A DNA stretch of 64,000 bases from assembly GCA_045106555.1 (NCBI GenBank), contig JBGCET010000002.1:135752-199751 (forward strand), given 5' to 3'. This document shows, piece by piece, positions 16,284 to 49,722 of this stretch. The stretch is from Lysobacterales bacterium (GTDB taxonomy: Bacteria > Pseudomonadota > Gammaproteobacteria > Xanthomonadales > SZUA-38). Under the pieces are notes generated by a model. The model made no database searches. It saw only the letters and a program-made list of their open reading frames with translations, and was not told where the DNA came from. A program made the position numbers and the translations under genes. The stretch's first letter is position 1, and the number at the start of each line of letters is the position of its first letter.

Positions 16284-16309
16284 TAAGGACCGTCAGCAGT
16301 GGGTCCTTA
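16284..16309. terminator. Inverted repeat between convergent operons (TAAGGACC-N10-GGTCCTTA)
   Basis: An 8-bp stem read directly from the sequence. It overlaps the HDOD stop codon. No clear U-tract. Confidence 0.3.
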
Positions 16310-26537: not shown

Positions 26538-27365
26538 TCAGACCCCATCATCAAGAAAACTGCTTGTGCATTGCGCTATTTCCACCGCGGCTTCATCCAG
26601 CACCGCCTGAGTAATGTGGAGCTTTTCCACCAGTTCAGCGTTAGCCAGCAGTTTCGCCGCTCGGCGAGTGGGCTTAAGCAAGATCGATTGGGTGGCAATC
26701 AACAGACATCGAGCCGACAGTTCGGCTAGCTGGGCTTCCACGTCATGACTGAAGGCGGCATAAAATGCCGCATTCATGTTCCCCATGGGGCGGAGCTGTT
26801 CCACAAAAAGCTCAACGGCCCGATCCAGACCCAGGCTGTCCAGGCGATTGGTAACATTAAAGTCCCAGGCGGGAAGCAATGCATCGAGGGATCGGGGTAA
26901 GGGGTGGGGTATGACCAATTCTTTTTTGTATTGAGCTCGGGTTTCAGGTTCGAAAGCGGGTATATCGACCAGGACTACGTTGTTGACCTGGTCAGGTCGC
27001 AGCAACGCCATCTCGGCGGCCACCAGACAGCCTGTGTGGAATCCAAGAACATCAATCGGCTGGTTGGGTGACAGCGTGTCGGAAACGGCGATTGCGGCCA
27101 GGGCAAAATCGGTAATGCTGGGTTTGTCACTGGCGGGGTCGGAAGCGCCGAAACCCGGATAATCGGGTGCAACGACGCGACGCCCCGCTATCAGGTGAGG
27201 CGCCAGCGTGTTAAACGCGGCGCCGCTGTATGGCGAGGGGTGCAGGCAGTACAAATCAGAATGGTTTGTGGAACGCTGGCCCAGGCCCCAGCCATGCCAA
27301 TGCATCTGGCCGAAAGGCCCCGGGCAATAGCCGCGTTCAGACCGCTGCCGGGCATCGGCGTCCAT
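26538..27365 (-). CDS. Alpha/beta-hydrolase-fold protein, epoxide-hydrolase-like subgroup, with His at the nucleophile elbow
   Basis: LYCLHPSPYSG / VVAPDYPGFGASD / VLGFHTGCLVAAEMA read as the alpha/beta-fold core. The ATG overlaps the IclR stop by 1 nt. Confidence 0.75.
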   Translation of the reverse strand: MDADARQRSERGYCPGPFGQMHWHGWGLGQRSTNHSDLYCLHPSPYSGAAFNTLAPHLIAGRRVVAPDYPGFGASDPASDKPSITDFALAAIAVSDTLSPNQPIDVLGFHTGCLVAAEMALLRPDQVNNVVLVDIPAFEPETRAQYKKELVIPHPLPRSLDALLPAWDFNVTNRLDSLGLDRAVELFVEQLRPMGNMNAAFYAAFSHDVEAQLAELSARCLLIATQSILLKPTRRAAKLLANAELVEKLHITQAVLDEAAVEIAQCTSSFLDDGV

Positions 27366-28120
27366 TACCGGGCCGCGCCAATTTTGAAGTAAGTTTTGAT
27401 GCCGTATTTTCGGGTGAGCCTTTTCAGATCTTTATGATGCTGTTGCTGGTTTTGCCGAATCCGTTCGCTGGGGCCTACAACTCCGATAACCATGACGTCC
27501 TGGGATAACAGCCCGGTGACCGGTGTACACACCGCCCCAATGCCCTGGATGAAAACATCACACATGGTGACGGTTCCCCGCTGGACGAGATGTTGTCGAA
27601 CATCCTTTATGCGGTCTAGCGCTGCCTGCTGAGGTTTATGCGTGTTGACGAAGTTGTCCATGCGCGCGTCGTCAAGTACTGACAGTGCAGTCAGGCCAGT
27701 CAGTGATGTTGATGCCGGCATCAACAGACCCACACGAACACTCACCCCTACCGCGTGACGACACTCCAGGCCGTGGACGATTTTCACCTGATCGCCGGTG
27801 AGGCGACTGAGGTTAATCGTCTCTTTGGTGCAGTCGTTGAGGTCGCTGACGAGGTCCAGCATGCGGCTGTCGCGCTCCAGATATTCCCGGGCCCATTCGA
27901 TGCTGGAAACCAGTTTTCTTGATGGCGTGTACGTCCAGTCCTCAGGGTTGTAATCAGCGTAACCCAGGTCATGCATGCTCTTGAGCAGGGCATGGGAGCT
28001 GGTCAGGGGGTAACCCAGCTGACGAGAAATCTCCTTCGCCGCCAGCGGCTCGCGCTGATCGTCAAACAGTTCGAGGATTTCAAACACTCGGCGTACCGAT
28101 TTGATGGTGCTGTCAGACAT
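27365..28120 (-). CDS. IclR-family transcriptional regulator
   Basis: N-terminal HTH VFEILELF...KEISRQLGYPLTSSHALLKSM and an IclR effector-domain-like C-terminus. Confidence 0.85.
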   Translation of the reverse strand: MSDSTIKSVRRVFEILELFDDQREPLAAKEISRQLGYPLTSSHALLKSMHDLGYADYNPEDWTYTPSRKLVSSIEWAREYLERDSRMLDLVSDLNDCTKETINLSRLTGDQVKIVHGLECRHAVGVSVRVGLLMPASTSLTGLTALSVLDDARMDNFVNTHKPQQAALDRIKDVRQHLVQRGTVTMCDVFIQGIGAVCTPVTGLLSQDVMVIGVVGPSERIRQNQQQHHKDLKRLTRKYGIKTYFKIGAAR

Positions 28121-28170: not shown

Positions 28171-28992
28171 TCAGGCCGCCATCCGCAAGAGTGCAGACTC
28201 TATGACCTGGGCCACGTCATTGGTTTTGTAATCAAGATAGCCATGATTCCAGTCGGGCAAATCGATCAAGGTTCCATTCTTAAGGTGGCCCAAGGTTCGC
28301 GGCGTCATTTTGTAGAGGTCGTCGCCCGGATTCAGCAGGGTGACTGGATGGGGTAGTGATTCAATAGCCTCGATGAATCGCTCGTTGTAATCAAACACCG
28401 CTGACGACCCCCAGCCGTAATGTTGGTTCCAGCGCACTATTTCCGCCAGGCTCTCAGCTTTCATAGGCAGTGACATTTCTGGCGCTGAATTTGATGCCAC
28501 CATCCGCCACAGATCTTTGAATCGAGTGCCGTCATCATCAAGAGGCGCCGGCGTCATCGATTGTCGAATAGCGGTGACATCATCGGAAGACAGCGTGGCG
28601 GCAGAGGACAGGATCAACGCGCCCACGTGTTCGGGGCGTTGACGGGTCGCGGCGACAGCGAGCTTCGCGCCGGCGTGAATGCCAAACAGGTTGACCTTGC
28701 CATGGGAGCGCAGCAGGTCGAGCTGGTCTACTACCTGCCAAATAGCCGTCGCGTACTGCTCGGCAGCAATGGGCACGGGTGGTGGGCAGGATTCGCCGTG
28801 GCCAGGGAAATCCGGGGCAACAGCAATACGTGTTTCGCTGACCACTTCAATAAGACGCGAAAAATTCCGCCCAGATTGAGGAAACATGTGGAGCAACACC
28901 AGTGGCGTCTGTGATGGATTATCAGGGCCCGCAAATCGCAAATGAATTTGACCGTAATCGCCGTCGATAAAGGTTCGTTTCGCCTTAGTCAT
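28171..28992 (-). CDS. Alpha/beta-hydrolase-fold protein, paralogous type, with His at the nucleophile elbow
   Basis: LVLLHMFPQSGRNF / AVAPDFPGHGES / NLFGIHAGAKLAVA. Start chosen at ATG 28992 (MTKAKRTFIDG). The ORF extension to 29169 overlaps the upstream gene. Confidence 0.75.
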   Translation of the reverse strand: MTKAKRTFIDGDYGQIHLRFAGPDNPSQTPLVLLHMFPQSGRNFSRLIEVVSETRIAVAPDFPGHGESCPPPVPIAAEQYATAIWQVVDQLDLLRSHGKVNLFGIHAGAKLAVAATRQRPEHVGALILSSAATLSSDDVTAIRQSMTPAPLDDDGTRFKDLWRMVASNSAPEMSLPMKAESLAEIVRWNQHYGWGSSAVFDYNERFIEAIESLPHPVTLLNPGDDLYKMTPRTLGHLKNGTLIDLPDWNHGYLDYKTNDVAQVIESALLRMAA

Positions 28993-29003: not shown

Positions 29004-29987
29004 CTACTGAACAAACTCGAGCTGAAAACCCTCGCTGTCTTCCACCAGCATCGATTGATCGGCTTTTATGCATGGGCTGACCGATGGGCCAGGCGGCCTG
29101 ACAATGGTCAACCCAAAGGCGGTCGCTCGCCGATGAACCTCTTCGATATTGGTGGTTGTGAATGTCCACATCACAACCCCGCGACTGCTGGCGGTTTGCG
29201 CAGCGGCCGTCGGGCGGTTCAGGTCAAAATGATCCATGAACACCAGGTAACCGGTATTGGCGCCGGGAGCAAATGCCTGTACAAAGCGTTCCTTGGCGCC
29301 TTCCGGTAACAGCAGGCCAGAACGTTCGCCGATATCGAAGGTGGCGTCGCGACGGATCTCATAACCCATTACCGTCTCCAGCATCTCAGCCATCCGATCG
29401 GCATCAGCCACGTTGCGCGCTGAGTAGGCGGCGCCCCCCAGGCCGGTTCCTTGATCAATAGGCCCAACTGGGATAAACATGTCCGGCCGTTTCACCCCTA
29501 ACAGCAAGATATTCTCCGGTGCTTTGTAGAGAATTTCGGCCGACACATACGATTGTCCGTCCGGGCTAGTGAAGGTCATTTCTTTGACCCCGATGGTGGA
29601 TTCTACGCCGATGCGTTTCATGACCTCTTCATGGGCGTAGAGATCGTTCATCGGAAAACTCACCGTCACGCCACCGAGATCGTGACCGCTGTGACTGGTT
29701 CGAACCTGGGGCCGCTCTGGAGTAACGTTGATTACTCGCAGCTGGACATTGGCACCGTCTCCCGCCTTGCCGTATCCGCGGATCTGTAACAGGACGGCAG
29801 GGTCCACACCCAAGTAATCGGCTGCATCTCCCAGGCTCGGCGCGGCGTCGTCGCAGATGGTCAGTCCGTACCCTTGAGCGAGTAGTTCATCCACCCTGTC
29901 CATCTCAGCGGTAACGTAAGTAACAGTGTGCAGCGGCCCGACCAATGCCTCAGCGGGGCGGCTCTTGGGTACAAAAATATCTTCCAT
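29004..29987 (-). CDS. Two-domain VOC (glyoxalase/extradiol-dioxygenase)-like protein, tentative
   Basis: 327-aa ORF packed between the amine oxidase and the alpha/beta-fold gene. The assignment rests only on overall beta-alpha-beta-rich pattern and context. No diagnostic motif was verified. Confidence 0.45.
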   Translation of the reverse strand: MEDIFVPKSRPAEALVGPLHTVTYVTAEMDRVDELLAQGYGLTICDDAAPSLGDAADYLGVDPAVLLQIRGYGKAGDGANVQLRVINVTPERPQVRTSHSGHDLGGVTVSFPMNDLYAHEEVMKRIGVESTIGVKEMTFTSPDGQSYVSAEILYKAPENILLLGVKRPDMFIPVGPIDQGTGLGGAAYSARNVADADRMAEMLETVMGYEIRRDATFDIGERSGLLLPEGAKERFVQAFAPGANTGYLVFMDHFDLNRPTAAAQTASSRGVVMWTFTTTNIEEVHRRATAFGLTIVRPPGPSVSPCIKADQSMLVEDSEGFQLEFVQ

Positions 29988-30010: not shown

Positions 30011-31507
30011 TCAGACGAGTTTTTCGAGAATTTCAAACGCCGCGCGTTCACCAGATTCCATCGCTCCTTCCATGCCGCGATTCATTACTGCGGTATGTTC
30101 GCCGGCAAAGTGAAGGCGTTTCCAGGGCGCTCTCATTTGGCGCGAGAAGCGGGTAATTTGTCCTGGTTTCCAGTAGGCATATGCGCCGCCAAAAAACGGC
30201 GAGCGGTTCCAGGAAAATACCTTCAGCAGTTTCAGTGCGCCCCGGGTTGACGGGCGAATCCGTGCGAGATCATCGACGATGAGCTGGGCCGCCTGGGCTG
30301 GCGCCATTCGGTCAAGGTATTGAGCCATGGTGCCATTCACAAAAGACAGGCAGCTGGTGATGTCGTCAGGTTTACTTGGATCGTTTTGCAACGCCATGAA
30401 ACGCCCGGGCGTGCGGTCCGTCCACATGCTGGGTGGCAGTTTGTCTTTTTCCCAGTATGGCTTGGTGGCTTTGAAGTGGGCTTGAAATACAGGGGTGTAG
30501 CCCAGTTCGTTCACAGCCTGGGCCTGCAGACCCTCAAGGTTTGGGCTGATATCTACGTGACGCAACGCGCTAAAGGCCAACGTACACAGACAGAAGCGAG
30601 CGTGATAACGGGTGCCATCGGCTGTCGTGACGGTGACGCCACCGGCCTGGGAATCAATGCCCCGTACGTGTTGGCCCAGAATCGGCGGCGACGTAAGTCC
30701 GCCTGCCATGGCTTCGGGAATGCGCTGATTACCGCCTGCCGCCGCCATGGAGCCTGCCGACGAGCCACTGTACAGCGAGCGCACCAGGTTGCTGGACTGG
30801 TATCCCATCAACGCCGACAGGTCGTGGGTGTTGCTGCCGTAGCTCATGTTGGTTCCGGCGCCCAGCTTAATGGCTTGAGGATTAATCCCTCGCTGAACCA
30901 TCAGGTCATGAACCGAGATATCGTGGGCTGCATAGGCGCCGCTTTGCCAGGCGGCCAGATCACCCTTAGGCAGCGGGTTGTGCGCTTCTCCGTAAAGCAT
31001 GAACTGCACAATATGCAGCGGTAATTGGCGCATCTCCGGTTGGGAAAACGGGTTTGCCGCATGGTCAGCCCATTGGTCCGGGGTAATGACATTTCCGCCC
31101 ACGTGGTACAGGAACTTGCCGGGCCGTCCTTCCGTTCTTGGCCGTGATTTCTGCATGGGCACCTTGTATTTTTGTGCGGCATACAGCAGGCGGGCATATT
31201 GAGAGCCAATACCGCTGCCGCCCATTTCCGGGAAGCCAGGAATTTCGCTGGCGTCCGCGGTATGCACTCGGCCGCCAATGCGCTGGGTGCCCTCGATAAT
31301 GCGTACGGAAAATCCGGCTTCCTGCAAAATCAGCGCAGCGTTCAAGCCAGATAAGCCGGCGCCAATGATCAGCACATCGTCCCGCGTTGGCTGGGCCAGG
31401 GTTTGTCCTGCTGATAGGCTGAGGGCACCGGCGGACAGTGCCATGGCTCTTAAGGCCTGGCGTCTGGACCATCCGCTACGCGGCGATTTTTGGCTTGGGC
31501 GGCTCAT
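30011..31507 (-). CDS. Tat-exported flavin-containing amine oxidase
   Basis: Twin-arginine signal SRRQALRAMALSAGAL, FAD motif DVLIIGAGLSGLNAALIL...GGRV, and C-terminal RLHFAGEHTA...GMEGAMESGERAA. Confidence 0.85.
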   Translation of the reverse strand: MSRPSQKSPRSGWSRRQALRAMALSAGALSLSAGQTLAQPTRDDVLIIGAGLSGLNAALILQEAGFSVRIIEGTQRIGGRVHTADASEIPGFPEMGGSGIGSQYARLLYAAQKYKVPMQKSRPRTEGRPGKFLYHVGGNVITPDQWADHAANPFSQPEMRQLPLHIVQFMLYGEAHNPLPKGDLAAWQSGAYAAHDISVHDLMVQRGINPQAIKLGAGTNMSYGSNTHDLSALMGYQSSNLVRSLYSGSSAGSMAAAGGNQRIPEAMAGGLTSPPILGQHVRGIDSQAGGVTVTTADGTRYHARFCLCTLAFSALRHVDISPNLEGLQAQAVNELGYTPVFQAHFKATKPYWEKDKLPPSMWTDRTPGRFMALQNDPSKPDDITSCLSFVNGTMAQYLDRMAPAQAAQLIVDDLARIRPSTRGALKLLKVFSWNRSPFFGGAYAYWKPGQITRFSRQMRAPWKRLHFAGEHTAVMNRGMEGAMESGERAAFEILEKLV

Positions 31508-31547
31508 GAATTGTTGTCCTTATGGCTGGCTTGACTTGCACATATGC

Positions 31548-31562
31548 GTGTACATTGTACAC
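31548..31562. promoter_or_regulatory. Perfect palindrome GTGTACA-T-TGTACAC in a divergent promoter region (candidate operator)
   Basis: Read directly from the sequence. It lies between the amine-oxidase start (31507, minus strand) and ATG 31587 (plus strand). TTGACT occurs at 31531-31536. Confidence 0.3.
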
Positions 31563-31586
31563 ATACGAGCAAATTCAGAGGGTAAA

Positions 31587-32852
31587 ATGAATCGATTGAG
31601 CATACCATTGGTGCTCGCTGCGAGTCTTCTGGCGTCGGGACTTGTGCAGGCAAGCTGCCAATCGGCGCCAACCCAGAAATGTCTGCTTGTTCAGGCGGGT
31701 CAAGGGCTGGAGGCCATTGATGAGTCGACAAGCCGAATTGATGGGATGATGGAGCTCGCGGCAGCGCTGGCTGCGGGCGGTGATCAGCGCGAAGCGTTTG
31801 TCCTGCTGCTGCGTGCTGCGGTGAGCGCGGGTGCTCAGCCCGAGATCAGTCGCCGAGCAGAACTCATGGCCAGCGTGAGTCAGGCGGTTTCAGATCATGT
31901 GACCCTTGGCGCTGGGCGCAGAGCTGCGACCCAGATGGCCGAAGCGGCTCTTTTGGCCGTAGACGGCGTGCAGTCCGAAGACAAACGGGTGGATTTACGA
32001 GGGAAGTCGCTGGTCGCGCTAGCCTCCGCGAGTGATCCCGGTCGCGCCCTCAAGCAGGCCCAAGCTCTGGCCGAAGGCAGCGATAACGCGGCCTCTTATA
32101 AAGCCCGCACGCTAAAAGCGCTGGCATCCATTGCAGGCCGTTCCGACCCTGACCAGGGCAAGGCAATACTGACATCGATCACGATGGGCCTTAGCTACTA
32201 TCAGGCCACAGCGTACGCCGACCTGGCACTGGCGGCGGCGCAACGCCAAGACACCCGCGGCGCCCTAGCGTTGCTGCCAACCGCGGTGGAAATTGCCCGA
32301 GCTCAGGACGAAGGATATTTTGTCGGTGGAGCCTTGCGCGAAGCCGCGATGGCTTACCTGGCCGCGGGCCAGAACGCGACCGCTGATGCGCTGTTCGACG
32401 AGGCGGTTCGGGGCGCCAAGGCGGCGGGCTCGGTGCAACAACAGGCAAGGGCCATTAGCCGAATCGCATCAGACCTGGCTGATGTACAGCGCTTTGATCA
32501 GGCCCGCTTATTGCTACCCCAGGCGGTGACGTTGGCCCGCGAGGAATCGGCCGAACCTCTCAGGATGTGGTGTTTTTACGAAATTGCCGGGTCGGCAGCG
32601 GCGTCGGGTGATCTGAATCTGGCACAGAAACTCCTGCAAGAGATTTCCCCGGAGGTGGCTTTTTCCGGCCGCCCTCTCCTCGCTGCGGCTCAGCGGGATG
32701 TGGCGTGGGGAATGGCAAGACATGGCAAGACCACTCAAGCCATCGCGCTGGCCCAGGACATCACTTCAGCTCGGGAACGGGTACAGGCGCTGTCGAGAAT
32801 CGTCCGGATGATGGCGGATCCAGCGATGACCGCGCTGCCTCGTTACCTGTGA
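31587..32852 (+). CDS. Secreted alanine-rich helical-repeat (TPR-like) protein
   Basis: Signal peptide MNRLSIPLVLAASLLASGLVQA. Recurrent ...AR(A/T)xxALxxIAxxL... helical units. The ORF-track start at 31278 overlaps the amine oxidase and is rejected. Confidence 0.6.
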   Translation: MNRLSIPLVLAASLLASGLVQASCQSAPTQKCLLVQAGQGLEAIDESTSRIDGMMELAAALAAGGDQREAFVLLLRAAVSAGAQPEISRRAELMASVSQAVSDHVTLGAGRRAATQMAEAALLAVDGVQSEDKRVDLRGKSLVALASASDPGRALKQAQALAEGSDNAASYKARTLKALASIAGRSDPDQGKAILTSITMGLSYYQATAYADLALAAAQRQDTRGALALLPTAVEIARAQDEGYFVGGALREAAMAYLAAGQNATADALFDEAVRGAKAAGSVQQQARAISRIASDLADVQRFDQARLLLPQAVTLAREESAEPLRMWCFYEIAGSAAASGDLNLAQKLLQEISPEVAFSGRPLLAAAQRDVAWGMARHGKTTQAIALAQDITSARERVQALSRIVRMMADPAMTALPRYL

Positions 32853-32859
32853 CGGTGCA

Positions 32860-33156
32860 CTAGTCGGGCATTTCTACCAGTTGGACTTCAACCTCAGCCA
32901 AGCCTTCGCGCAGTTTTTTCACCTCAGCGTATTCTTCTGAGTCCCAAAAAGCGCGGGCTGTGGCTCGGTCTGGCCACTTGGAAATAGCGATGGAGGTATA
33001 CCCCTCGAGGGTGCCCTCCAGCAGTTCTGCTCCCGGGGCCAGCACCAGGTATTGACCGCCAAATTTCTTCACCAGCGCCGCTGCAGCGCTGCCATAGCCG
33101 GTGCGAAACTTGTCTCGGTCATGGATTTTTGCCGCAATAATCATGTAGGCCGCCAT
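32860..33156 (-). CDS. DUF1330 family protein
   Basis: 98 aa. MAAYMIIAAKIHDRDKF...YGSAAAALVKKFGGQYLV...AISKWPDRATARAFWDSEEY matches the DUF1330 pattern. Confidence 0.75.
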   Translation of the reverse strand: MAAYMIIAAKIHDRDKFRTGYGSAAAALVKKFGGQYLVLAPGAELLEGTLEGYTSIAISKWPDRATARAFWDSEEYAEVKKLREGLAEVEVQLVEMPD

Positions 33157-33175
33157 AGCGTGTAATGTCCTTTGT

Positions 33176-33622
33176 TTAAGGCTGTGTTTCTACCTGTAGG
33201 TAATCGATGATAGCGCTTCGATCTGCCGCTTTCGCGACGCCGGCAAACGCCATGATGGTGCCAGGTACTTTGCCGGTTGGGCTTGTGATGAACGCATCAA
33301 TTTGTTCGCGACTCCATACGATGTCTGCGGCTTTCAACGCGTCAGAATAGCCGAAGCCCTCAGCGCTTGCTGCGCTGCGTCCGAAAAGGCCGCTGAGGTT
33401 TGGGCCCACTCGATGGCCCTGATCTTTCTTCAGGGCATGGCAGGCTTGGCACTGTAAGAACAGAATTTTTCCTCGGCGCAAAGTGGCCTCACTGACCGCA
33501 GGCGAAGTCGACGCTGCGGGATCTGGCGAGGTTTGGCCGTTGCTGCAGGCTGGTATGGCAATTAACGCCAGCAAAACAGTGGGTAGCGAAATGACGTTTG
33601 GAATCTGCATGGAAAGGTTCAC
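33176..33622 (-). CDS. Class I c-type cytochrome (c2-like), probable lipoprotein
   Basis: Haem motif CQACH, GPNLSGLFGR, distal Met region GTIMAFAG, and N-terminal LIAIPAC. Confidence 0.85.
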   Translation of the reverse strand: MNLSMQIPNVISLPTVLLALIAIPACSNGQTSPDPAASTSPAVSEATLRRGKILFLQCQACHALKKDQGHRVGPNLSGLFGRSAASAEGFGYSDALKAADIVWSREQIDAFITSPTGKVPGTIMAFAGVAKAADRSAIIDYLQVETQP

Positions 33623-33763
33623 CTTGGGGTGCTCGTCGGCCTCTGTTGGGCCATTGTTGGATTAAATCGTATCACATATGAGTCTGTATCATACTCAGAT
33701 GTAAATGCACGACGCCTGCTTTGTGTATACTGTCTGCCCCTAAAATACCTCAGGTAGATTCAG

Positions 33764-34477
33764 ATGCGAAGTTCCGACGACTTTACCCGCGGTGGTGTTT
33801 TCCTGGCTTTGGCGGTGATTTTTACGATCGTGCTGACCGCTTGCTCCAGCAATCCCAATCGCACCCCCTTGAGTAGCGCTGATCATCTTGCCCGGGTACT
33901 TGGCTGGTGGCCGGGTGACTACAACAACGATAGGCAGTTGGCAGTTTTAACAAAGGCAGGCAAACCCATTTGGCGTGAAGACGGTTCTGGCAAGCCGGGT
34001 CACATAGAGGTGACGTCCCACTATCGCGAGGTCAATTTGCCCCAATTCGGATCTCACGTTTTGTATGTGGAAGAAACTAAGCATGGCGATCCCAAGCTGA
34101 TGTTTCGCCAGCGCATATACACCTTCGACATTGATCCCCAAAGCGACGACATTACGGTCAAGCTATGGAACTTCAAAGACAAGCAGGGGTATGTTGGGGC
34201 CTATCAGGATCTGTCGATGATTGCCGACCTTCAACCGAGCGAAATGTCGCCTTTACCGGATCAATGCGATCTGACGATTCGCCAGCAGGCGGATCGTTAT
34301 CACATGACAATGCCGGCCAAGGCCTGTGCATTTGGCGGCCGATATTTTGACTATCAGGTGTTACTGGGCCCGGATACGTTCTGGTTCAGGGACCGCATTG
34401 TGGACCTGGAAACCGACGAAGTCAGGGAATCTGCTGGCGGCTTTACCTATCATGAGCTAGACCAAATCAATGGGTAG
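33764..34477 (+). CDS. CpcT/CpeT-family (bilin-lyase-like beta-barrel) lipoprotein
   Basis: Lipobox VLTAC. LGWWPGDYNNDRQ and HIEVTSHYREV...FGSHVLYVEE...MFRQRIYTF resemble the CpcT/CpeT signature. Confidence 0.6.
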   Translation: MRSSDDFTRGGVFLALAVIFTIVLTACSSNPNRTPLSSADHLARVLGWWPGDYNNDRQLAVLTKAGKPIWREDGSGKPGHIEVTSHYREVNLPQFGSHVLYVEETKHGDPKLMFRQRIYTFDIDPQSDDITVKLWNFKDKQGYVGAYQDLSMIADLQPSEMSPLPDQCDLTIRQQADRYHMTMPAKACAFGGRYFDYQVLLGPDTFWFRDRIVDLETDEVRESAGGFTYHELDQING

Positions 34478-35390
34478 TTCGTTGCCAGTTGCTGCAGCCT
34501 TCGCACTGTTTTTGCCAACGTTCGTGGCTAACGCACAAACACCGGGTACAACGTTCCAGGACTGCCAGGACTGCCCGGAAATGACGGTGATCCCCAGTGG
34601 CAAAGCCTGGCTTGGGGTGGAACCTTTCGAGGCTAATACCAAACGCGGGGATGTTGCGTTGCGCGAAGTCACCATTAGTTATGGATTGGCTGTGGGAGCC
34701 AAAGAGATTACTCGCGCGCAATATCGCACCTTCATGGAAGCGTCTGATCATCAGATGGCTACCGCGGGCTGCAATACCTGGGGCGTCAATCGAATATTAG
34801 GGTATGTGAAATCTCACACCTGGAATGCGCCGGGTTTTCCGCAAAACGAACAGCACCCGGTGGTATGCGTCAGTCATGTGGATGCAACCGCCTACGTGGA
34901 ATGGCTCAGCGAAAAAACCGGCAAATCCTATCGGCTGCTGTCCTCTACTGAATATGAGTATGCAGCCCGGGCGGGTACCCGTGGTCCCTGGTTCTGGGGC
35001 TTAAGTGCCGCCCAGGCCTGCGAATACGCCAATGTCGGTGACGACAATTTTCGACGAAGCTTCGACTACGCCCCCGTGTTTAACTGCGACGATGGCTACC
35101 TGCATACGGCTCCGGTGGGGTCGTACAAGCCCAACGCCTGGGGCTTATACGACATGCTGGGCAACGCATGGGAGTGGACCCAGGACTGCCTGCATCGTGA
35201 CACCACTAACATTCCTCTGGATGGGTCGTCGTGGCTGGAAGAAGACGGTGGTGAGTGTGATCGACGTATTCCCCGCGGCGGTGGCTGGGTCTCCGGAACC
35301 GACTGGATCCGTGCGGGCGCTCAGGCGGGCGACCTGGCCCCCTATCACAGCCAGCTGCTGGGCTTCAGAGTCGGGTTGACGCTAGACTAG
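34470..35390 (+). CDS. Formylglycine-generating-enzyme (FGE/SUMF1/PvdO) family protein, secreted
   Basis: Signal peptide. YRLLSSTEYEYAARAG, WGLYDMLGNAWEW, RGGGWVSG and LLGFRVG. Overlaps the upstream CpcT-like gene by 8 nt. Confidence 0.85.
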   Translation: MGSSLPVAAAFALFLPTFVANAQTPGTTFQDCQDCPEMTVIPSGKAWLGVEPFEANTKRGDVALREVTISYGLAVGAKEITRAQYRTFMEASDHQMATAGCNTWGVNRILGYVKSHTWNAPGFPQNEQHPVVCVSHVDATAYVEWLSEKTGKSYRLLSSTEYEYAARAGTRGPWFWGLSAAQACEYANVGDDNFRRSFDYAPVFNCDDGYLHTAPVGSYKPNAWGLYDMLGNAWEWTQDCLHRDTTNIPLDGSSWLEEDGGECDRRIPRGGGWVSGTDWIRAGAQAGDLAPYHSQLLGFRVGLTLD

Positions 35391-35440
35391 CCCGTCGAGA
35401 GATAGGTTTGAAAGGTGCTATCGCCCGATGTGCCACAAAC

Positions 35441-36487
35441 TTATAGCTCACTGAGAACCTCCCGAAACTCATATCCTTCGCGGTGACAGTGGGCGCCAAT
35501 GCCCTGGGTGTTAAAACCAAAGCGGCGTGAGTCCACGTCATGCACGGTGTACACCAACGAGCGGGGTTCGCCGGTTTTACGAAAGGAAAAGTACATGAAA
35601 TCAGGGCGGTCAGAATAAAAGGGGTATTGTTTGTCTCTCAGCAGACCGGTAAACGATTGACTGTCGGACTGACGGGTCAGTTCAAAGGTTCCGCCCTGAC
35701 TCAGCAGCCGAATGTTTGCTTGAGTCTGGGTAATGGCGCCCTGGTCATCACGGAAGCTCACCTCGCAAAAAAAGACCTTGGCGCGTCTCATTTGAGTAAA
35801 CGCCCCCGGCTTGTTGCCGGCAGCATGTTCGCCGCTGGAAACATAATAAGACCCGTCTTCACGCCAATAGGTGTCTTCAGACAGCACTAGGTTATGGACA
35901 GAATACCGGCGTTTTTCTCCCTCACCGAAGAAACACGCCCTATCGTCCATGGCGCCATGAAACTGTCCACCCACTCGACGCCACTGCACCGAGCAGTTGG
36001 CCTCCGGAAGAATGTCGCTCATGAATTGGACGTCGTCGACCGACAACGATTCCCATTTTTTGGGGTCTTCATGAGCACCCAGCCACGCGTCTTTATCCCT
36101 GAAAAACTGCTGGTGCATCAGGATATGAGGATTGCCAGGCTCGGTAGAGAATGTCACTAGCCTTTGGCGAAATACTTTCGCTGGGTTGTTGTCGCGATAT
36201 TCCTCAACGTAATAAACGTGGTCACCAAACTCCGCTGCGTGAACGCGGTGATGAATGGTGTGGACCCGGATCTGGCGATCGGACTCCGCTATGGAGACCC
36301 GTCGGTCGGCTTCAAACCAGCGCTGCTCTTCGTTATCAAATTCGCCCTCAAACCATTCGCTGAGCACCTTAATATCTCGCGCCATCGGGTCAGCGGCGTC
36401 ATCGGCAAACACCGCCTGGCCGGCAGAGAGAAGGCCGGCACCCGCTGCCAGTTGCAAAGCCATTAGCAGTCCCCGTTTCATCATCAT
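35441..36487 (-). CDS. CpcT/CpeT-like domain protein, secreted, with an extra C-terminal domain
   Basis: Signal peptide. LSEWFEGEFDNEEQ and IRVHTIHHRV...FGDHVYYVEEYRD...VFRQRLVTF. Lies 19 nt downstream of the second amine oxidase. Confidence 0.6.
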   Translation of the reverse strand: MMMKRGLLMALQLAAGAGLLSAGQAVFADDAADPMARDIKVLSEWFEGEFDNEEQRWFEADRRVSIAESDRQIRVHTIHHRVHAAEFGDHVYYVEEYRDNNPAKVFRQRLVTFSTEPGNPHILMHQQFFRDKDAWLGAHEDPKKWESLSVDDVQFMSDILPEANCSVQWRRVGGQFHGAMDDRACFFGEGEKRRYSVHNLVLSEDTYWREDGSYYVSSGEHAAGNKPGAFTQMRRAKVFFCEVSFRDDQGAITQTQANIRLLSQGGTFELTRQSDSQSFTGLLRDKQYPFYSDRPDFMYFSFRKTGEPRSLVYTVHDVDSRRFGFNTQGIGAHCHREGYEFREVLSEL

Positions 36488-36506
36488 CTCTCCTGGTTTG
36501 CTGTTT

Positions 36507-37964
36507 TCAAACGGCGCTCAATACACTGATCGCCGCCCGTTCGCCGGATTCAAAAGCGCCTTCCATGCCACGCTCCAGCAATGCGGTGTGCTCCCCGCAG
36601 AATTCGATATTGCCGTGATTATCACGCATGTGTGCGGCATATTGGGTGACCTGTCCTGGCCGCCAGAACACCCAGTCACCGGCGCCATGGACATCCCGAT
36701 GGCAGGACTGCACCAATACCGGCTCCAGAGCGCCCTTCAACGCCGGGCGCACTGCTTCGAGTTCGCGAGTGGTGTAGTCCATTACCTGTTGGTCGGTCAT
36801 GAAATTGTATTTGTACGCCTCATCGCCATTGATGAAGGCAATGGCAGAGGACGGCGCGCCCTTTTCTCCTCGGCCCAGCACCGCAAAACGTTCAAAACTG
36901 CCGTCTGCCCAGATGTTTTTGGGCAAGCCGTCGTCTTCCCAGAAAGGCCGTTTCAACAGATAGTGCACCTGGATGGAAATCCCGTAGTCGATTTCGTCGA
37001 TTGCCGCTGCCATCCGCTCGGGAAGCCGCGGAAAAAACTTCACGTCCTTCATTACCGGATAGGGCATGGAACAAACCACTTTTTTTGATCGGTAGCGTGT
37101 GCCATCGCCGCAATGGGTGATGACCTCAGATCCTCGGTCTTCGAATGCGTAAACCGTCTTGCCAGTAAGTACGCCGTTTTCCAGGCTTTCAGCCATCGCC
37201 GCAGGCATGCGTGAATTGCCGCCTTCAACCTGCAGTACGGGTGGCCGATCCTTCGCGGCGTCTGAGACTCGGGAGTTGAATTCTCCAACCGCGTATCGAC
37301 GAAGTTCATGCAGTGCCGACGTGTTGTCCAGGTGATCGGTGTGCACGATGGTGTTCATCAGGCGAATCGTTTCGTCGTTATAACCCAGGTAACGCCGTAG
37401 GTATTCGCTCTGGGGAATATCGTATTTGGCAAACTCCGGTTTGATCCAGGCGTCCAGGGGCTGGCCCGACAAGGGGTTGTCTCGATGGGACAGCTCGAAC
37501 AACATTCGGTTGGGCATCATTTCCCGGTCTTTGCCGGACAGCGGATTGAGTTCGTGGGTCGGCCAGGCTTCGGCGGAAATGTCCTGCCCACGGATGCGGT
37601 AATACCAACCAGACCTCGTGGCCAGCTGGTTGGGTTCAATCAGTTTCAGCTTGTGGCGTTTAGCGGCTTGAATCATCCGCGCATAGTTGCCGCCAATCAG
37701 TTCTCCCGCGGCTTCTGGCTTACCGGGAATATCCATCAATGTGTAAACCCGGCCGCCGATGCGTTGGCGACCTTCCAGGGTTTGCACATTCATCCCGTTA
37801 TCTTCCAGCAAGGTGGCGGCCTGGAGGCCCGAAAGGCCTGCGCCCACCACGATGACATCGTGGACCGGGGTTGCTTTGCCGAATACCGGCAGAACCGGGG
37901 TCAACGCGGCTGCCACGCTCCCCTGCAGGAGTTGTCGGCGTTTGCTGGAAATCGGTGAATTCAT
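36507..37964 (-). CDS. Tat-exported flavin-containing amine oxidase (second paralogue)
   Basis: SKRRQLLQGSVAAAL twin-arginine signal, DVIVVGAGLSGLQAATLL...GGRV, and IEFCGEHTA...GMEGAFESGERAA. Confidence 0.85.
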   Translation of the reverse strand: MNSPISSKRRQLLQGSVAAALTPVLPVFGKATPVHDVIVVGAGLSGLQAATLLEDNGMNVQTLEGRQRIGGRVYTLMDIPGKPEAAGELIGGNYARMIQAAKRHKLKLIEPNQLATRSGWYYRIRGQDISAEAWPTHELNPLSGKDREMMPNRMLFELSHRDNPLSGQPLDAWIKPEFAKYDIPQSEYLRRYLGYNDETIRLMNTIVHTDHLDNTSALHELRRYAVGEFNSRVSDAAKDRPPVLQVEGGNSRMPAAMAESLENGVLTGKTVYAFEDRGSEVITHCGDGTRYRSKKVVCSMPYPVMKDVKFFPRLPERMAAAIDEIDYGISIQVHYLLKRPFWEDDGLPKNIWADGSFERFAVLGRGEKGAPSSAIAFINGDEAYKYNFMTDQQVMDYTTRELEAVRPALKGALEPVLVQSCHRDVHGAGDWVFWRPGQVTQYAAHMRDNHGNIEFCGEHTALLERGMEGAFESGERAAISVLSAV

Positions 37965-38210: not shown

Positions 38211-38221
38211 ACGAGGTGGAG

Positions 38222-38800
38222 ATGAACTGGCGTCAGCAACAAAAAGTAGAGCTGAAACAGGCCCTGTATGCGTGCGCGGTCAGACTGTTCGAAGCCCAAG
38301 GTTTTGAGTCTACGACCGTAGCTCAAATTACCACTGAACTGGGTGTGGCCAAGGGGACATTCTTCAACCACTTCCCCAGCAAAGAACATGTCATTGAGCA
38401 GTGGTACGACGCGATTACGACGGACTGCCTGGCGGCGGCGAAAACCGCTTCTTTTGCCAGCGCTGAGCTGGCAATAGCGAGCCTGTTTTCGGAGATGTCT
38501 GGGCGAGCCACGGCGTCTCCCGAACTGCTTATGGCGAAAGCTGGCAACGTGATAAACCCCCTTTTGGTTGGCGCTGAAATGCGTCAGGTAAAGCAGGTGG
38601 CGGACTATGTTCGAACCCAATGCCAGGCCGGTGTTGAGCGTGGTGAACTCAGGGCGGATACCGACATCCACTTTGTCGCTGATCTTCTGGTGGCCTTGCT
38701 GACAGGGACCTCCCGCGCTTGGGTAAGCTCTCAACCCCGTTTTGATTTCCCCGACCTCATCCGCAGGAGAGTTCAGTTCGTATTTGAGGCGGCCCGGTGA
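38222..38800 (+). CDS. TetR-family transcriptional regulator
   Basis: HTH TTVAQITTELGVAKGTFFNHFPSKE. ATG 38222 is preceded by GAGGTGGAG. GTG 38216 is the alternative start. Confidence 0.85.
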   Translation: MNWRQQQKVELKQALYACAVRLFEAQGFESTTVAQITTELGVAKGTFFNHFPSKEHVIEQWYDAITTDCLAAAKTASFASAELAIASLFSEMSGRATASPELLMAKAGNVINPLLVGAEMRQVKQVADYVRTQCQAGVERGELRADTDIHFVADLLVALLTGTSRAWVSSQPRFDFPDLIRRRVQFVFEAAR

Positions 38801-39687
38801 GCGTATTGTCGATCTGCCATTTAAGTCACACCTATGCCGGCGGCGTGCAGGCCTTGAACGATCTCAGTATGGAGCTCGGGCCCGGCATGTTCGGATTACT
38901 GGGACCCAACGGCGCTGGCAAGTCCTCATTGATGCGAATTATTGCAACCTTGCAAACCCCCAGTCAGGGCGACGTGCATTTTGGTGATATTGACGTCCTC
39001 AAACAGCCTCAGCGACTCAGGCGGGTGTTGGGCTATCTCCCCCAGGATTTTGGCGTCTATCCGCGAGGCTCTGCGATGGAGATGTTAAATCACATTGCCG
39101 TGTTGAAAGGGATAAGCTCGCGCAAACAGCGCCGGCAGCTCGTTGAGCACCTGCTGCATTTGACCAATCTATTTGACGTACGAAAAAAGCGACTGGCGGG
39201 GTTTTCCGGTGGCATGCGCCAACGGTTTGGCATTGCCCAGGCGTTGATTGGCAATCCCAGACTGTTGATTGTTGACGAACCCACTGCCGGGCTGGATCCC
39301 CAGGAGCGCCATCGGTTTCATAACTTGTTGGCGGAAGTGGCTCAGGATGTTGTGGTGGTGCTGTCAACCCACATCGTGGAAGACGTGGACGACCTGTGCC
39401 CGCGGATGGGTGTGCTCAGGGCCGGTCAAATCGTGGCTCAGGGTAAGCCTGCGGACCTGCGCAATGCCCTGGTCGGCACCCTGTGGGAAAAAGCGATTGA
39501 ACCCAAGGACCTTCAGGCAGTGGAGGCGCGTCACGAGGTGATTTCCCACCATCTATCCGCCGGTAAGCGGGTGGTCCGGGTTCGGGCGACGCAATATCCT
39601 GGCGACGACTTCCAACGCAGCGATCCGACGCTTGAGGACGTGTACTTTTGCGCCATAGCCCAAGCCACGGCAGTGGCAACGGCTTAG
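38797..39687 (+). CDS. ABC transporter ATP-binding protein
   Basis: Walker A GPNGAGKSS, signature FSGGMRQR, Walker B LLIVDEPTAGLD. The GTG start overlaps the tetR stop (GTGA). Confidence 0.9.
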   Translation: MSVLSICHLSHTYAGGVQALNDLSMELGPGMFGLLGPNGAGKSSLMRIIATLQTPSQGDVHFGDIDVLKQPQRLRRVLGYLPQDFGVYPRGSAMEMLNHIAVLKGISSRKQRRQLVEHLLHLTNLFDVRKKRLAGFSGGMRQRFGIAQALIGNPRLLIVDEPTAGLDPQERHRFHNLLAEVAQDVVVVLSTHIVEDVDDLCPRMGVLRAGQIVAQGKPADLRNALVGTLWEKAIEPKDLQAVEARHEVISHHLSAGKRVVRVRATQYPGDDFQRSDPTLEDVYFCAIAQATAVATA

Positions 39688-39690
39688 ACA

Positions 39691-42600
39691 ATGACGGGAC
39701 GCATTGCCTGGCTTGAGTGGCACTATCAGGCGCGATCCGTGGCTGCGTTGCTGGCACTTGCCGTTTCGTTGGGCTTGGGGTTTTTGCTGACCGCCAATGC
39801 GGGAGAGTTTCAGTCCTTTGCCCCCGGCGGAATGGTGCTGGCCAACTCTCCCCACGCACTTGTCGAAAATTTGATCAAAATCGGATTGTTGGCCGTGTTT
39901 GCCATGCCGGCCATCATTGGCGGTGCAGTGCTACGGGACTTGGAATCAGGTATGTCTCCGTTGATCTACAGCACACCAGTGAGCACTTGGCAGTTCTTGC
40001 TCGGACGCTTTGCCGGCTCTTTTGGTGTTCTGGCGGTGGTGGCAGCAGGCGCTCCAGTTGGTTTTCTGCTTGGCACCTTTTGGCCCTGGGCCGACCCATC
40101 ATTGCTGGGCCCCACCCGGCTTCACCACTATGGCTTTGGCTACATTGTCATCATGTTGCCGACATTGTTGTTCACCGCGGCGTTGGTTTTCGCCGTAGCG
40201 GTGATTGCTCGTCGAATGATCTACGTTTACCTGATGGTGATGGCCCTGCTCGCTTTATCGTTGATCGGCGGTGAAGCCAATCTGATTCATCCCGTGGTTG
40301 ATCCATTTTTGTACGAAGTGTTTGAGCGTCAGACCCGCTACTTGAGTGCCGCCGAGCGCAATCAACAGCTGGTTAAAATCGACACGTTGATGCTGCTTAG
40401 CCGAGCGCTATGGGGAACTCTGGCGCTGGCGGCCTTGGCGCTGGCTTGGCGGCGCTTTTCATTTTCCCCAGTGATGAGGGGAGAAAAACCTCCGGCTGAG
40501 ATGAAGGGCGAGTCCCATCAGTTCAACTCCTTGTCGGCGGACTGGAAAATCTCACCACTATGGGAGAGTGCTACCTCTTGGCGTCAACTCAGGGTCTTGA
40601 TGGTGTGGGAAATTCGACAAGTCTTAATGAGTCGGCCCTTTCTCATTCTCCTCGCGATCAGCTTCACTCTGTTGGTGTTGAGTTTAGTGAGTCGCGAGGT
40701 CCACTATGGTGTGCAGGCCCTGCCGGTAACCCGGCTGATGATTGGGTCTTTGTCGTCGCTAATCCTGGCGCTGATGGTTGTCCTGGCTTTTTACAGTTCG
40801 GAGATTATCTGGCGGGAGCGTCGCTGTGGATTCAATGGCGTGTTGGACGCAATGCCGGTCCCCAGTGTCGTTGTGATCAGCAGCAAGATCTCAGCGTTGT
40901 TGGTGGTAATGGCAATGATCGTTGGATTGGGCGTCGTGATCGCGGTTGGGGTTCAGATTGGCAGCGGCTACTATCATTTTGAGCCACTGCTTTACCTTGA
41001 GCGGGGCCTGTTTTTCAACACGCTTCCTTACCTTTGTTTGGCCGTGCTGACCTGTTTTTTTCAGGTGCTTGGCAGCCATCGCTTTGTCGGGCTGCTGATG
41101 TTTGCTGTTTTTATGGCGGCGCTTGTGGGTTCTCGAGATCTATTCGGTGTAGAACATCCATTGCTGAGTTTCGGCCTGCCAGCGGTGCCGGCGCCCATGT
41201 CGGACATGAGCGGCGCACGAGAGTTTATGGCCTTGGGATATTGGGTACGAGCCTATTGGTTTTGCCTGGCGGGGCTGTTTTTGATGGCCACCGTTGCACT
41301 TTGGCAGCGAGGTATCCTGCAGCCACTGCGGCTCAGGTTGCGCAGGCTTACGCGTCAAACCAGCGTGCTGCCGATGGTTTCGGCAGCGTTGCTGGCCCTG
41401 GGAGCCGTGGGCGTCGGCGCTGTCATCTATCACAACACCAATATTGTCAATCGTTATGTCACCAATGCGGATGCTGAGGTAATGCAGGTGAACTATGAGC
41501 GCAACTACCAGAGGTTCTCGAGCTTACCGATGCCGTCCATCACTGCGGTGACTATGGCAGTGGACCTTTACCCCTTGCAACGTCGAGTAACGGTGGCGGG
41601 GGAGCACCTCTTGCGCAACCGCCACGAACAGCCTCTGACGCGCATTGATGTGGTTTTTCCGCCCGACCTTGACCTGGTCTCCGTCACCTTGGACGTTGCC
41701 GCAGCCCAATCTCAAGCCAGTGAACTGGCTACGTATGTCACGTTCGAACTTGATCAGCCGATGCTGCCTGAACAGCAGATCACCTTGCAATTCGAGGCCC
41801 AGCTCCAGCACGTAGGGTTCGCTCATGATGCTCCCGACACCGCGCTGGTTCGTAACGGGATTTTTATCGGCAACGAACGGTTTAGCCCCCACATCGGGTA
41901 TAACCCAGATTACGTCTTAGACGATGTTCGAGACCGTCAACATTATGGATTGGCGCCGTTGGCGAGGCGGCCGCTGTTAGAGGACACCCGACAACACAAC
42001 GTCAATCCAACCCGGGCTGACAGCACCTTTATTGACTTTGAGAGCACCGTTTCAACCATAGCCGGTCAGACCGCGATTACCTCGGGCAACCTCATTGAGC
42101 GCTGGGAAGAGGGCGAGCGGGCCTATTTTCACTACAAAATGAGTGGGCCTATTCGAAACCTGTACGCCTATTCTTCAGCGCACTATGACGTTGTGCGTGA
42201 TCAGGTCAACGGCTGGGATCTGGAAGTCTTTCATCACCCTGGACATGATAAGAATGTAGGACGAATGCTGGACGCAGCGAAAGACAGCCTTGCGTATTTC
42301 AGTGAAGTCTTTAGCCCGTATCAGTACCAGAAGCTCACGATTGCCGAATTCCCGGCCTATCGGGCATTTGCCCAATCCTTTCCTGACACCATCTTTTTTT
42401 CCGAGGATCTGGGGTTCCTGGATCAGATCGGCCCTCAAGATCTGGACATGCCGTACTACATTACGGCCCACGAAGTGGCGCATCAATGGTGGGGTCATCA
42501 GTTGACCGCGGCGAATACTCAGGGAGATGGGTTTCTGCACGAAACGTTGGCGCAATATTCCGCCATGTTGGTGATGCGCAACCGATATGGGCGCGACACG

Positions 42601-44688: not shown

Positions 44689-44790
44689 AAGAAGACCTGT
44701 AAAAAACCACGAGGAGACGATGGTAGCCCACCCGGTACGCCAAAAACCGGACCGAGTTGGCAGTCGGTCAGGCCTCAAAAGCGTTATCGA

Positions 44791-49632: not shown

Positions 49633-49722
49633 GGACAACTCCTTGCGGTGAAATTCATGCATGAGAAGGATAACGACGCTGGCGATCAATGTCAGTAGAA
49701 ACGTCCGGTGTCTTATCGGTCG

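Follow-up and report, generated by a model that had tools for sequence, protein, structure and literature searches.

Genes for flavin amine oxidoreductases and CpcT-fold proteins form paralogue-specific pairs in a cluster conserved across bacterial phyla

The gene cluster described here lies at positions 30011-37964 of a 64,000-nucleotide stretch of contig JBGCET010000002.1 from a Lysobacterales metagenome-assembled genome (MAG), the whole of which is called the window. It encodes two flavin amine oxidoreductases (FAOs) exported by the twin-arginine translocation (Tat) pathway, oxA and oxB, together with two proteins of the CpcT/CpeT family, CpcT-A and CpcT-B, and a lipoprotein cytochrome c. 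The clustering of FAO and CpcT-like genes goes far beyond chance and is conserved across bacterial phyla, and each oxidase paralogue keeps company with a CpcT paralogue of its own. With moderate confidence, the cluster can be read as a periplasmic module for the catabolism of amines or amides, in which the FAOs would deliver electrons to cytochrome c and the CpcT-fold proteins would act as their dedicated ligand-handling partners. A more specific proposal, whose chances we place clearly below even, is that CpcT-fold (DUF1001) proteins are obligatory, paralogue-specific partners or subunits of an unrecognised and widespread clade of lysine-less periplasmic amine dehydrogenases that respire on cytochrome c. 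An earlier note, made from the letters of the window, had listed the eight genes below with their families, an overlap of 8 nt and a spacing of 19 nt, and the open reading frame (ORF) list and Pfam profiles agree with it in each of these points:

30011-31507, minus strand: oxA, 498 aa, Tat-exported paralogue of the FAO superfamily (Pfam Amino_oxidase, E=3e-54)
31590-32852, plus strand: helical-repeat protein, 420 aa, secreted, weakly TPR-like (TPR_12 at 28 bits, below the cut-off of 30)
32860-33156, minus strand: DUF1330 protein (Pfam DUF1330, E=9e-21), no signal peptide
33176-33622, minus strand: cytochrome c lipoprotein, monoheme class I, c2/c550-like (Pfam Cytochrom_C, E=4e-6)
33764-34477, plus strand: CpcT-A, 237 aa, single-domain CpcT-fold lipoprotein (Pfam CpeT at 72.0 bits, cut-off 21)
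34470-35390, plus strand: FGE-fold PvdO-like protein, 306 aa, periplasmic (Pfam FGE-sulfatase, PF03781, E=4e-45)
35441-36487, minus strand: CpcT-B, 348 aa, Sec-exported, two-domain (Pfam CpeT at 73.3 bits, cut-off 21)
36507-37964, minus strand: oxB, 485 aa, Tat-exported member of the FAO superfamily (Pfam Amino_oxidase, E=7e-46)

The overlap joins the CpcT-A and FGE-like genes, and the spacing separates oxB from CpcT-B; the cytochrome c gene and the DUF1330 gene that follows it on the minus strand are likewise 19 nt apart. oxA and oxB are 33% identical to each other, and CpcT-A and CpcT-B 30% over 186 aa.

The linkage of Tat-exported FAOs with CpcT-like and FGE-like genes, on which the earlier note had built, recurs outside cyanobacteria, as seen from co-occurrence across 79 loci that came from a scan of one genome per species and were searched by tblastn with the window proteins. 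As labelled, these loci come from about 24 Gammaproteobacteria, 7 unclassified Pseudomonadota, 1 member of the Burkholderiales, 19 Alphaproteobacteria and 28 Bacteroidota, that is, from about 51 Pseudomonadota and 28 Bacteroidota. CpcT-B homologues form a family of proteins of about 340 aa, found mostly in MAGs, and five contigs that encode one (33-61% identity, differing neighbourhoods) all have an FAO beside the barrel. Wherever enough upstream sequence was available, an FAO usually stands immediately upstream of CpcT-B and co-directional with it (61 of 74 loci), the gap between the two ORFs having a median of about 10 nt, with several overlaps of 4-8 nt. Two or more FAOs occur in 44 of the 79 loci and CpcT-A in 19, and a monoheme cytochrome c is encoded within 3 kb of CpcT-B in 52, often directly flanking the oxB-CpcT-B pair.

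The pairing follows paralogy, with 49 pairs of oxB and CpcT-B, 9 of oxA and CpcT-A and no crossed pair, and the duplicated module that the note had described is real, the oxA/CpcT-A pair of the window having been split apart by the helical-repeat, DUF1330 and cytochrome genes. Two independently found CpcT-A homologues, in the loci L085 (Sphingorhabdus sp. EL138) and L086, also adjoin an FAO; a lipoprotein cytochrome c comes directly after CpcT-A in the former, and a helical-repeat protein follows the FAO in the latter. Because the pairing is tight, probably translationally coupled and paralogue-specific, the barrel is suggested to be a physical partner of the FAO. No FAO-CpcT fusion was present among the matches listed. 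Natural fusions do exist between the barrel and other members of these islands: P0345 consists of a signal peptide, a DUF1838 domain, a CpcT-A-like domain and a C-terminal cytochrome c, while P0273 and P0366 join an exported VOC domain to a CpcT-B-like protein, and P0263 is a tandem CpcT. Such fusions connect the barrel in function with the cytochrome and with VOC and DUF1838, two families recurrent in the islands.

The products other than DUF1330 are exported, as judged from signals read straight from the translations of the window genes. The N-termini of oxA (...GWSRRQALRAM..., with SRRQAL) and oxB (...SSKRRQLLQG..., with KRRQLL) are of the Tat type, so that both stand, as first described, as paralogous Tat amine oxidases, and 97 of 102 FAOs of the related loci carry an RR motif. 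Export of the two CpcT-like proteins, likewise claimed before, is supported by a Sec-type signal ending in ...AVFA|DD in CpcT-B and by a lipobox in CpcT-A (...VLTAC); the cytochrome c has a lipobox as well (...AIPAC), and the FGE-like protein a Sec-type signal (...FVANA|QT).

By profile, oxA and oxB belong to the FAO superfamily (PF01593), with the motif VVGAGLSGL for binding of flavin adenine dinucleotide (FAD) and a MAO-like two-domain fold. Their best sequence matches in the PDB are MAO-B (E of about 1e-26 to 1e-28), followed by L-amino-acid oxidases (LAAOs) and putrescine oxidase, and a Foldseek search with the AlphaFold2 (AF2) model of oxB (pLDDT 84.5) returned MAO-A/B, bacterial MAO, LAAO, PAO and NicA2 at TM 0.7-0.8 and about 20-24% identity; no close characterised relative emerged from these PDB sequence and structure searches. 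The oxB family is large, with 1236 proteins at E<=1e-20. Gln332 of oxB aligns with the lysine at flavin N5 (MAO-B Lys296, NicA2 K340), oxA also has Gln there, and in an alignment of 104 FAOs, made up of those of the related loci with oxA and oxB of the window, the position is held by Gln in 101, by His in 3 and by Lys in none. The Cys397 that links FAD covalently in MAO-B is a Gly in the alignment with oxB, from which the aromatic-cage tyrosines of MAO-B are absent too. The Arg of an R-G-M-E-G-A motif in the active site is invariant across the aligned FAOs, which would be compatible with an amino-acid-like substrate. The N5 lysine has been tied to O2 reactivity by the Stull laboratory (PMC12224317), and since this O2-activating residue is missing from oxA and oxB, they most likely do not use O2.

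The cytochrome c lipoprotein is proposed as the electron acceptor of both enzymes, a role that the earlier note had suggested and that fits published dehydrogenases composed of a Tat-exported FAO and a cytochrome c (PMC12224317). It has a single haem motif, CQACH, and c-550 CycA as its nearest NCBIfam model (82 bits, below the cut-off); all 46 cytochrome c homologues of the related loci have a single CxxCH. Akram et al. 2025 describe Tat-signal FAOs with an adjacent cytochrome c gene as cytochrome-c-dependent dehydrogenases on the NicA2/Pnao-CycN paradigm, and report that prediction of dehydrogenase function is currently unreliable, the adjacent cytochrome gene being the better predictor (PMC12224317). 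The N5 lysine is kept in nearly all FAOs of that study, the substrates of most of which are unknown, and its replacement by Glu in one subclade (Pseudomonas sp. GL-RE-19) coincides with the lowest O2 reactivity measured; neither CpcT-like genes nor the Gln variant is mentioned (PMC12224317). The window system resembles NicA2/Pnao-CycN (PMC12224317, PMC9396064) in its Tat-exported FAOs, with two paralogues in one pathway, in the small class I cytochrome c nearby and in its catabolic context. It differs in that its family is remote in sequence, its N5 lysine is replaced by Gln throughout rather than kept, each FAO paralogue has a cognate CpcT-fold partner that is absent from that work, and the cytochrome is usually a lipoprotein, which in the window shares no operon with either FAO. 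The flavoenzyme-cytochrome pairing is thus of a recently described kind, to which the CpcT-fold partner and the family-wide replacement of Lys by Gln are additions. In the literature searched, no paper linking CpcT or CpeT with amine oxidases was found.

The assignment of the partners to CpcT/CpeT, made in the earlier note from a sequence signature, is secure at the level of family and fold. Both barrels pass the threshold of the family (PF06206), and the family profile of CpcT-B matches CpcT (4o4o) at E=1e-10, a profile being needed to reach this structure, as a single-sequence PDB search with CpcT-B gave no match. The AF2 model of CpcT-B (pLDDT 90) matches 4o4o and 4o4s with a TMt of 0.81 in Foldseek, and also plant CRL (6lix) and phage CpeT (5hi8). 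Residues ~35-235 make up an N-terminal CpcT-fold calyx barrel, and residues ~236-340 an additional beta domain at the C-terminus, about 110 aa long, for which the PDB holds no match. Relatives of CpcT-B number 170 at E<=1e-30 and 638 at E<=1e-10 among 1.84 billion cluster representatives.

The invariant residues of CpcT-B include R107, R109, D211, C241, QGG264-266 and C334, and in the profile alignment to 4o4o, D211 corresponds to Asp163 of CpcT and R107/R109 to its R66/R68; H76 takes the place of CpcT H33, C165 and C185 that of its Cys pair, and the position of Tyr65 is occupied by Phe or Ile in the CpcT-B family. In Nostoc CpcT, Asp163 and Tyr65 were reportedly proposed to be catalytic by Zhou and colleagues in 2014, with Arg residues said to anchor the bilin propionates. 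As the calyx keeps the Asp and the Arg-x-Arg pair, and a dicarboxylate tetrapyrrole is bound there in CpcT, a ligand bearing a carboxylate is suggested. With the CpcT/CpeT lyases (PF06206; 4o4o, 4o4s, 5hi8) and plant CRL and SSG7, the window barrels share the Pfam family, the calyx beta-barrel (TM 0.81), the N-terminal G-x-[FY]-x-N-x-x-Q motif, the YVEE strand, the R-x-R pair, the equivalent of D163 and the Cys pair. They differ from the lyases in being exported, by Sec or as lipoproteins, in belonging to non-photosynthetic heterotrophs with no phycobiliprotein or bilin genes nearby, in not keeping Tyr65, in the additional C-terminal beta domain of CpcT-B, and in having genes locked to those of FAOs and cytochrome c. 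CRL and SSG7 have the CpcT fold with non-lyase functions (PMC11606413), and by analogy with plant CRL a lyase role seems unlikely for the window barrels. The name "chromophore lyase" is probably a misannotation here, and we infer that the barrels are not bilin lyases and instead serve as dedicated ligand-handling partners of the flavoenzymes. A comparable arrangement has been described for PvdM homologues, periplasmic proteins without catalytic activity whose translation is coupled to that of FAD oxidoreductases exported by Tat (PMC9305348). There, too, a periplasmic protein accompanies a Tat flavoenzyme, with TonB and MFS genes nearby, and channelling of the substrate, preventing its loss from the periplasm, has been proposed; the partner has a dipeptidase-like fold rather than a CpcT calyx and the enzyme is of the DAO/glycine oxidase rather than the FAO type, so that the comparison is one of analogy only.

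Put together, the module would work as follows. A lipoprotein amidohydrolase may first free the amine from an amide conjugate. oxA and oxB would fold with FAD in the cytoplasm before Tat export and would oxidise a C-N bond of the substrate in the periplasm, passing the two electrons singly to the membrane-anchored monoheme cytochrome c instead of to O2, and from there to the respiratory chain, as in NicA2/Pnao-CycN. Each enzyme would have its cognate barrel, oxB the two-domain CpcT-B and oxA the lipoprotein CpcT-A, whose calyx may hold the substrate, or a reactive imine or oxo product, in transit to or from the flavoenzyme and cytochrome. In some lineages the PvdO-like protein may contribute an extra oxidation step. 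Import of the products would follow, and VOC enzymes, alpha/beta hydrolases and the DUF1330 protein would process them in the cytoplasm, under the control of an IclR regulator.

Several observations weigh against this reading. The window cytochrome c is in operon with neither oxidase, forming its own transcription unit with DUF1330 at 1.7 kb from oxA and 2.9 kb from oxB, and 27 of the 79 loci have no cytochrome c within 3 kb of CpcT-B. An adjacent FAO is lacking for 13 of the 74 CpcT-B homologues. Similarity to characterised dehydrogenases is remote (E of about 1e-12 for Pnao, 7u6l; 20% identity for NicA2), so the analogy to NicA2/Pnao rests on context and not on membership of the clade. An AhpC peroxiredoxin recurs in 12 loci, and its presence in some Bacteroidota loci could mean that some H2O2 is made. 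Lastly, the calyx Asp would fit just as well if the barrel were itself an enzyme, working like a lyase or a hydrolase.

Some of these points would also be expected if oxA and oxB were true periplasmic or secreted oxidases that turn O2 into H2O2 in the manner of LAAO or MAO, for nitrogen scavenging or antagonism, with the cytochrome c and the barrels serving otherwise. Such an account draws on the recurrence of AhpC, on the 27 loci without a nearby cytochrome c, on the fact that the closest relatives in sequence and structure (MAO-A/B, LAAOs, putrescine oxidase) are genuine oxidases, and on the fast reaction with O2 of Tat-exported FAOs that have no cytochrome c gene nearby (PMC12224317). We consider it unlikely, since the O2-promoting N5 lysine is absent from all 104 FAOs compared, two thirds of the loci have an adjacent cytochrome c, often in the same operon, and a natural fusion of CpcT with cytochrome c exists.

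Chromophore or cofactor maturation in the periplasm, in which CpcT-like lyases would attach a conjugated molecule to a protein or peptide thiol and the PvdO-like protein and FAOs would oxidise the chromophore as in pyoverdine, draws in part on the FGE-fold protein. Its best PDB match is PvdO (5hha, E=5e-46), with 201 bits against a cut-off of 500 in the NCBIfam PvdO equivalog. Eight Cys are conserved across 22 orthologues (the window protein and 21 others). No Cys follows G270-G271 in any of the 22, which means that the C-terminal catalytic, Cu-binding Cys pair of FGE, whose retention the earlier note had left undecided, is absent, the pair being placed as in human FGE. The pyoverdine fluorophore depends on PvdO for its final oxidation, and the chromophore on which PvdO works is periplasmic; no cofactor has been detected in the protein and no electron acceptor is known for it, and it is inactive once purified and may need an electron-transport partner (PMC6206403). 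Like PvdO, the window protein is periplasmic, has an FGE fold that lacks the catalytic cysteines of FGE and has ties to periplasmic oxidation chemistry; it differs from PvdO in falling below the equivalog cut-off, in having no pvdP, pvdM, pvdN or nonribosomal peptide synthetase (NRPS) context and in being embedded in operons of FAO, CpcT and cytochrome c, often ordered FGE-oxB-CpcTB-cytc in Flavobacteriaceae and oxB-CpcTB-cytc-FGE in Alphaproteobacteria. The PvdO-like gene is accessory and dispensable in most lineages, being present in 21 of the 79 loci, so that the link to PvdO drawn in the earlier note stands for the nearest structure and does not extend to equivalence or to a constant role. 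An identity as a Tsi3-type immunity protein of the type VI secretion system (bioRxiv 10.1101/2021.05.21.445229) was also considered and rejected, as there is no vgrG/tse3 context and the gene lies inside FAO operons.

In favour of chromophore maturation are the invariant counterparts of CpcT Asp163, reportedly proposed as catalytic, and of the two Arg, together with the closeness of the FGE-like protein to PvdO, which itself works on a periplasmic chromophore without a known electron acceptor (PMC6206403). It is nonetheless improbable. The window and the recurrent neighbourhoods of related loci contain no acceptor protein and no pvdP, pvdM, pvdN, NRPS or bilin-synthesis gene; the neighbours form a catabolic set of IclR regulator, uptake transporters and hydrolases; the PvdO-like gene is confined to a minority of loci; and Phe or Ile replaces CpcT Tyr65. 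No sulfatase gene was seen either among the scanned ORFs of the window or among the recurrent neighbours, and the large ORFs of the window include no sulfatase, phycobiliprotein or pyoverdine/NRPS gene, as the earlier note had said for the first two. Of the "periplasmic oxidation or cofactor-handling system" that it had put forward, the oxidation is retained, and the maturation of a cofactor or chromophore gives way to catabolism.

It is very improbable that the barrels act as electron relays or docking adaptors between flavin and cytochrome c by way of a bound tetrapyrrole (haem or bilin) or other redox-active ligand. The calyx of CpcT and of plant CRL does take up bilins (4o4s; PMC11606413), one natural fusion joins DUF1838, CpcT and cytochrome c, and a cytochrome c directly follows CpcT-A in L085, but CpcT-A and CpcT-B have no His, Met or Cys in common as a candidate axial ligand, with H76 of CpcT-B aligning with a Thr of CpcT-A, and FAOs of the NicA2 type reduce cytochrome c directly, with no adaptor (PMC12224317). 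Fortuitous co-location, or inheritance among close relatives of one MAG, has nothing in its favour beyond the origin of most loci in MAGs, and is already refuted by a pair that is paralogue-specific and has stayed together in two phyla, with protein identities of 30-60% and differing neighbourhoods.

The amine/amide-catabolic reading is bound up with the genes around the FAO-CpcT pairs. The unit of 30011-37964 delimited in the earlier note holds as far as it goes, and the conserved set continues to its left, to about 25067, with the following genes:

29004-29987, minus strand: VOC331, two-domain VOC protein (glyoxalase I / HPPD / extradiol-dioxygenase-like; Pfam Glyoxalase, E=2e-5), no signal peptide
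28171-28992, minus strand: abH2, alpha/beta hydrolase (Pfam Abhydrolase_1), likely start at M60 of an ORF reaching 29169
27365-28120, minus strand: IclR regulator, PcaR/PobR-like (Pfam HTH_IclR and IclR_C; NCBIfam pcaR_pcaU at 53 bits, below the cut-off)
26538-27365, minus strand: abH1, alpha/beta hydrolase (Pfam Abhydrolase_1)
25067-26485, minus strand: amidohydrolase lipoprotein (Pfam Amidohydro_1/3; lipobox ITVAGC), likely start MSHRPC..., in an ORF reaching 26554

VOC331 orthologues are found in 27 of the 79 loci, and the protein probably acts downstream, in the cytoplasm; a single-sequence PDB search gave no match, and its profile only weak and generic VOC matches (two-domain glyoxalase I, GLOD4, HPPD), from which no function can be assigned. 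Orthologues of abH2 occur in 18 loci, of abH1 in 8, and of the IclR regulator in 13, to which L085 and L086 add two more. The amidohydrolase, probably periplasmic, is of the prolidase / arginine-carboxypeptidase / ochratoxinase type, with prolidase-like 2p9b, phenylurea hydrolase, ochratoxin amidohydrolases and Arg carboxypeptidases as PDB relatives, and has orthologues in 23 loci, often in the order amidohydrolase-cytc-oxB-CpcTB.

Clustering of all ORFs of the 79 loci brought out further recurrent families. DUF1838 proteins, often with Tat-like signals and in multiple copies (up to four in tandem), are the commonest extra neighbour of the FAO-CpcT pair, in 33 loci (for example, L005 15896-20197 and L010 2543-3583). 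Two-domain VOC proteins occur in 31 and 26 loci and small ones in 25; zinc-dependent alcohol dehydrogenases (Zn-ADH) and MFS transporters in 27 each; alpha/beta hydrolases in 21; TonB-dependent receptors in 20; and lipoprotein CN-hydrolases of the nitrilase type in 19. The IclR regulator, the amidohydrolase, the hydrolases, the VOC, MFS, TonB and Zn-ADH families and the nitrilase-type enzymes are together a catabolic signature. In Maribacter algarum (L060), some sixteen consecutive genes come from recurrent families. The window itself has no homologue of DUF1838, the TonB receptor, Zn-ADH or the CN-hydrolase. A signal-less protein of about 190 aa in 16 loci (such as L080 13132-13701, L058 and L060) has an N-terminal G-S-L-D-N-Q-E-Q motif reminiscent of CpcT, no Pfam match and an hhalign probability of 31% against the CpcT-B profile; it may be a very divergent, cytoplasmic CpcT-like protein.

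Two other genes of the window cluster also have counterparts elsewhere. DUF1330 is present in 13 of the 79 loci, mostly beside VOC331 and an alpha/beta hydrolase, and since the window protein has no signal it is probably cytoplasmic. The helical-repeat protein, whose signal peptide is MNRLSIPLVLAASLLASGLVQA, is linked to the oxA half of the module, its homologues adjoining oxA-type FAOs in L001, L016, L025, L027, L085 and L086 and sharing a common C-terminal ...PRYL.

The NCBI accessions of the products are MFK7954669-676, under which the barrels are named "chromophore lyase CpcT/CpeT", and NCBIfam offers no equivalog for any protein of the cluster. Two starts differ between annotations. NCBI begins CpcT-B two codons later (346 aa, 36481) than the longest ORF (348 aa, 36487), and the FGE-like protein has 306 aa in NCBI (34470) and 269 aa by another gene caller (~34581). 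The 306-aa start is favoured, as it supplies the signal peptide and matches the PvdO alignment, and the 8-nt overlap with CpcT-A hinges on it.

Further genes of the window were weighed as island members and not retained. The MFS transporter at 23842-25053 adjoins the cluster, but its subfamily differs from that of the recurrent MFS proteins and its membership is uncertain; the HisD-like protein at 9393-10745 and the SDR, SSF, GntR and TetR/ABC genes are not recurrent, apart from L003. In that locus, the divergent pair of an SDR and a histidinol-dehydrogenase-like gene (window 8433-10745) is found again at 4294-6455, at 74% and 59% identity and with an FAO-CpcT pair and DUF1838 genes a few kb away, and in no other locus. 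On the other side of the cluster, 38216-43263 encodes a TetR regulator (38216-38800), an ABC ATPase (38797-39687) and an unusual 1190-aa protein (39691-43263) whose ABC-2-type permease region is fused to an M1 aminopeptidase domain at the C-terminus, an arrangement that does not recur in related loci. Beyond these lie genes for a trypsin-like serine protease (43297-44778), for a hybrid histidine kinase that has receiver and Hpt domains (44791-47532) and for another M1/leukotriene-A4-hydrolase-like peptidase (47659-49689), so that the flank of the amine-oxidation cluster is rich in peptidase genes. A 1240-aa GGDEF-EAL protein with Reg_prop and Y_Y_Y sensors (17125-20847), adjoining an HDOD protein (16307-17125), belongs to ordinary signalling and is unrelated. 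The names of several hosts (L010, L013, L021, L022, L026, L058, L069), among them Spongiivirga, Maribacter vaceletii, Candidatus Foliamicus and the bins RHO, COS, CAR and PNGco, hint by name alone at association with sponges or other marine hosts, and may hint at a host-derived substrate.

The replacement of Lys by Gln is a simple signature that could help to predict dehydrogenase function in a family of 1236 homologues, and for the many proteins of non-photosynthetic bacteria that bear the name "chromophore lyase CpcT/CpeT", the linkage supplies a context that can be tested; what the plant homologues CRL and SSG7 do may become clearer as well. A PvdO-like protein beside cytochrome c and flavoenzymes is a lead on the source of oxidant for cofactor-less proteins of the PvdO type. 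Cultured hosts (Hirschia maritima DSM 19733, Maribacter algarum, M. vaceletii, Spongiivirga sp., Algimonas porphyrae and Sphingorhabdus sp. EL138) make the system open to experiment. If the obligatory-partner proposal is true, it would provide the first physiological role of the 'bilin lyase' fold outside phycobilisomes and plastids. PvdO-like FGE-fold proteins would, if the reading is true, be placed in cytochrome-c-linked periplasmic oxidation, which bears on the electron acceptor of PvdO, and the island, with its VOC and DUF1838 families, would represent a new pathway by which a marine metabolite, an amine or amide that may come from a host, is broken down.

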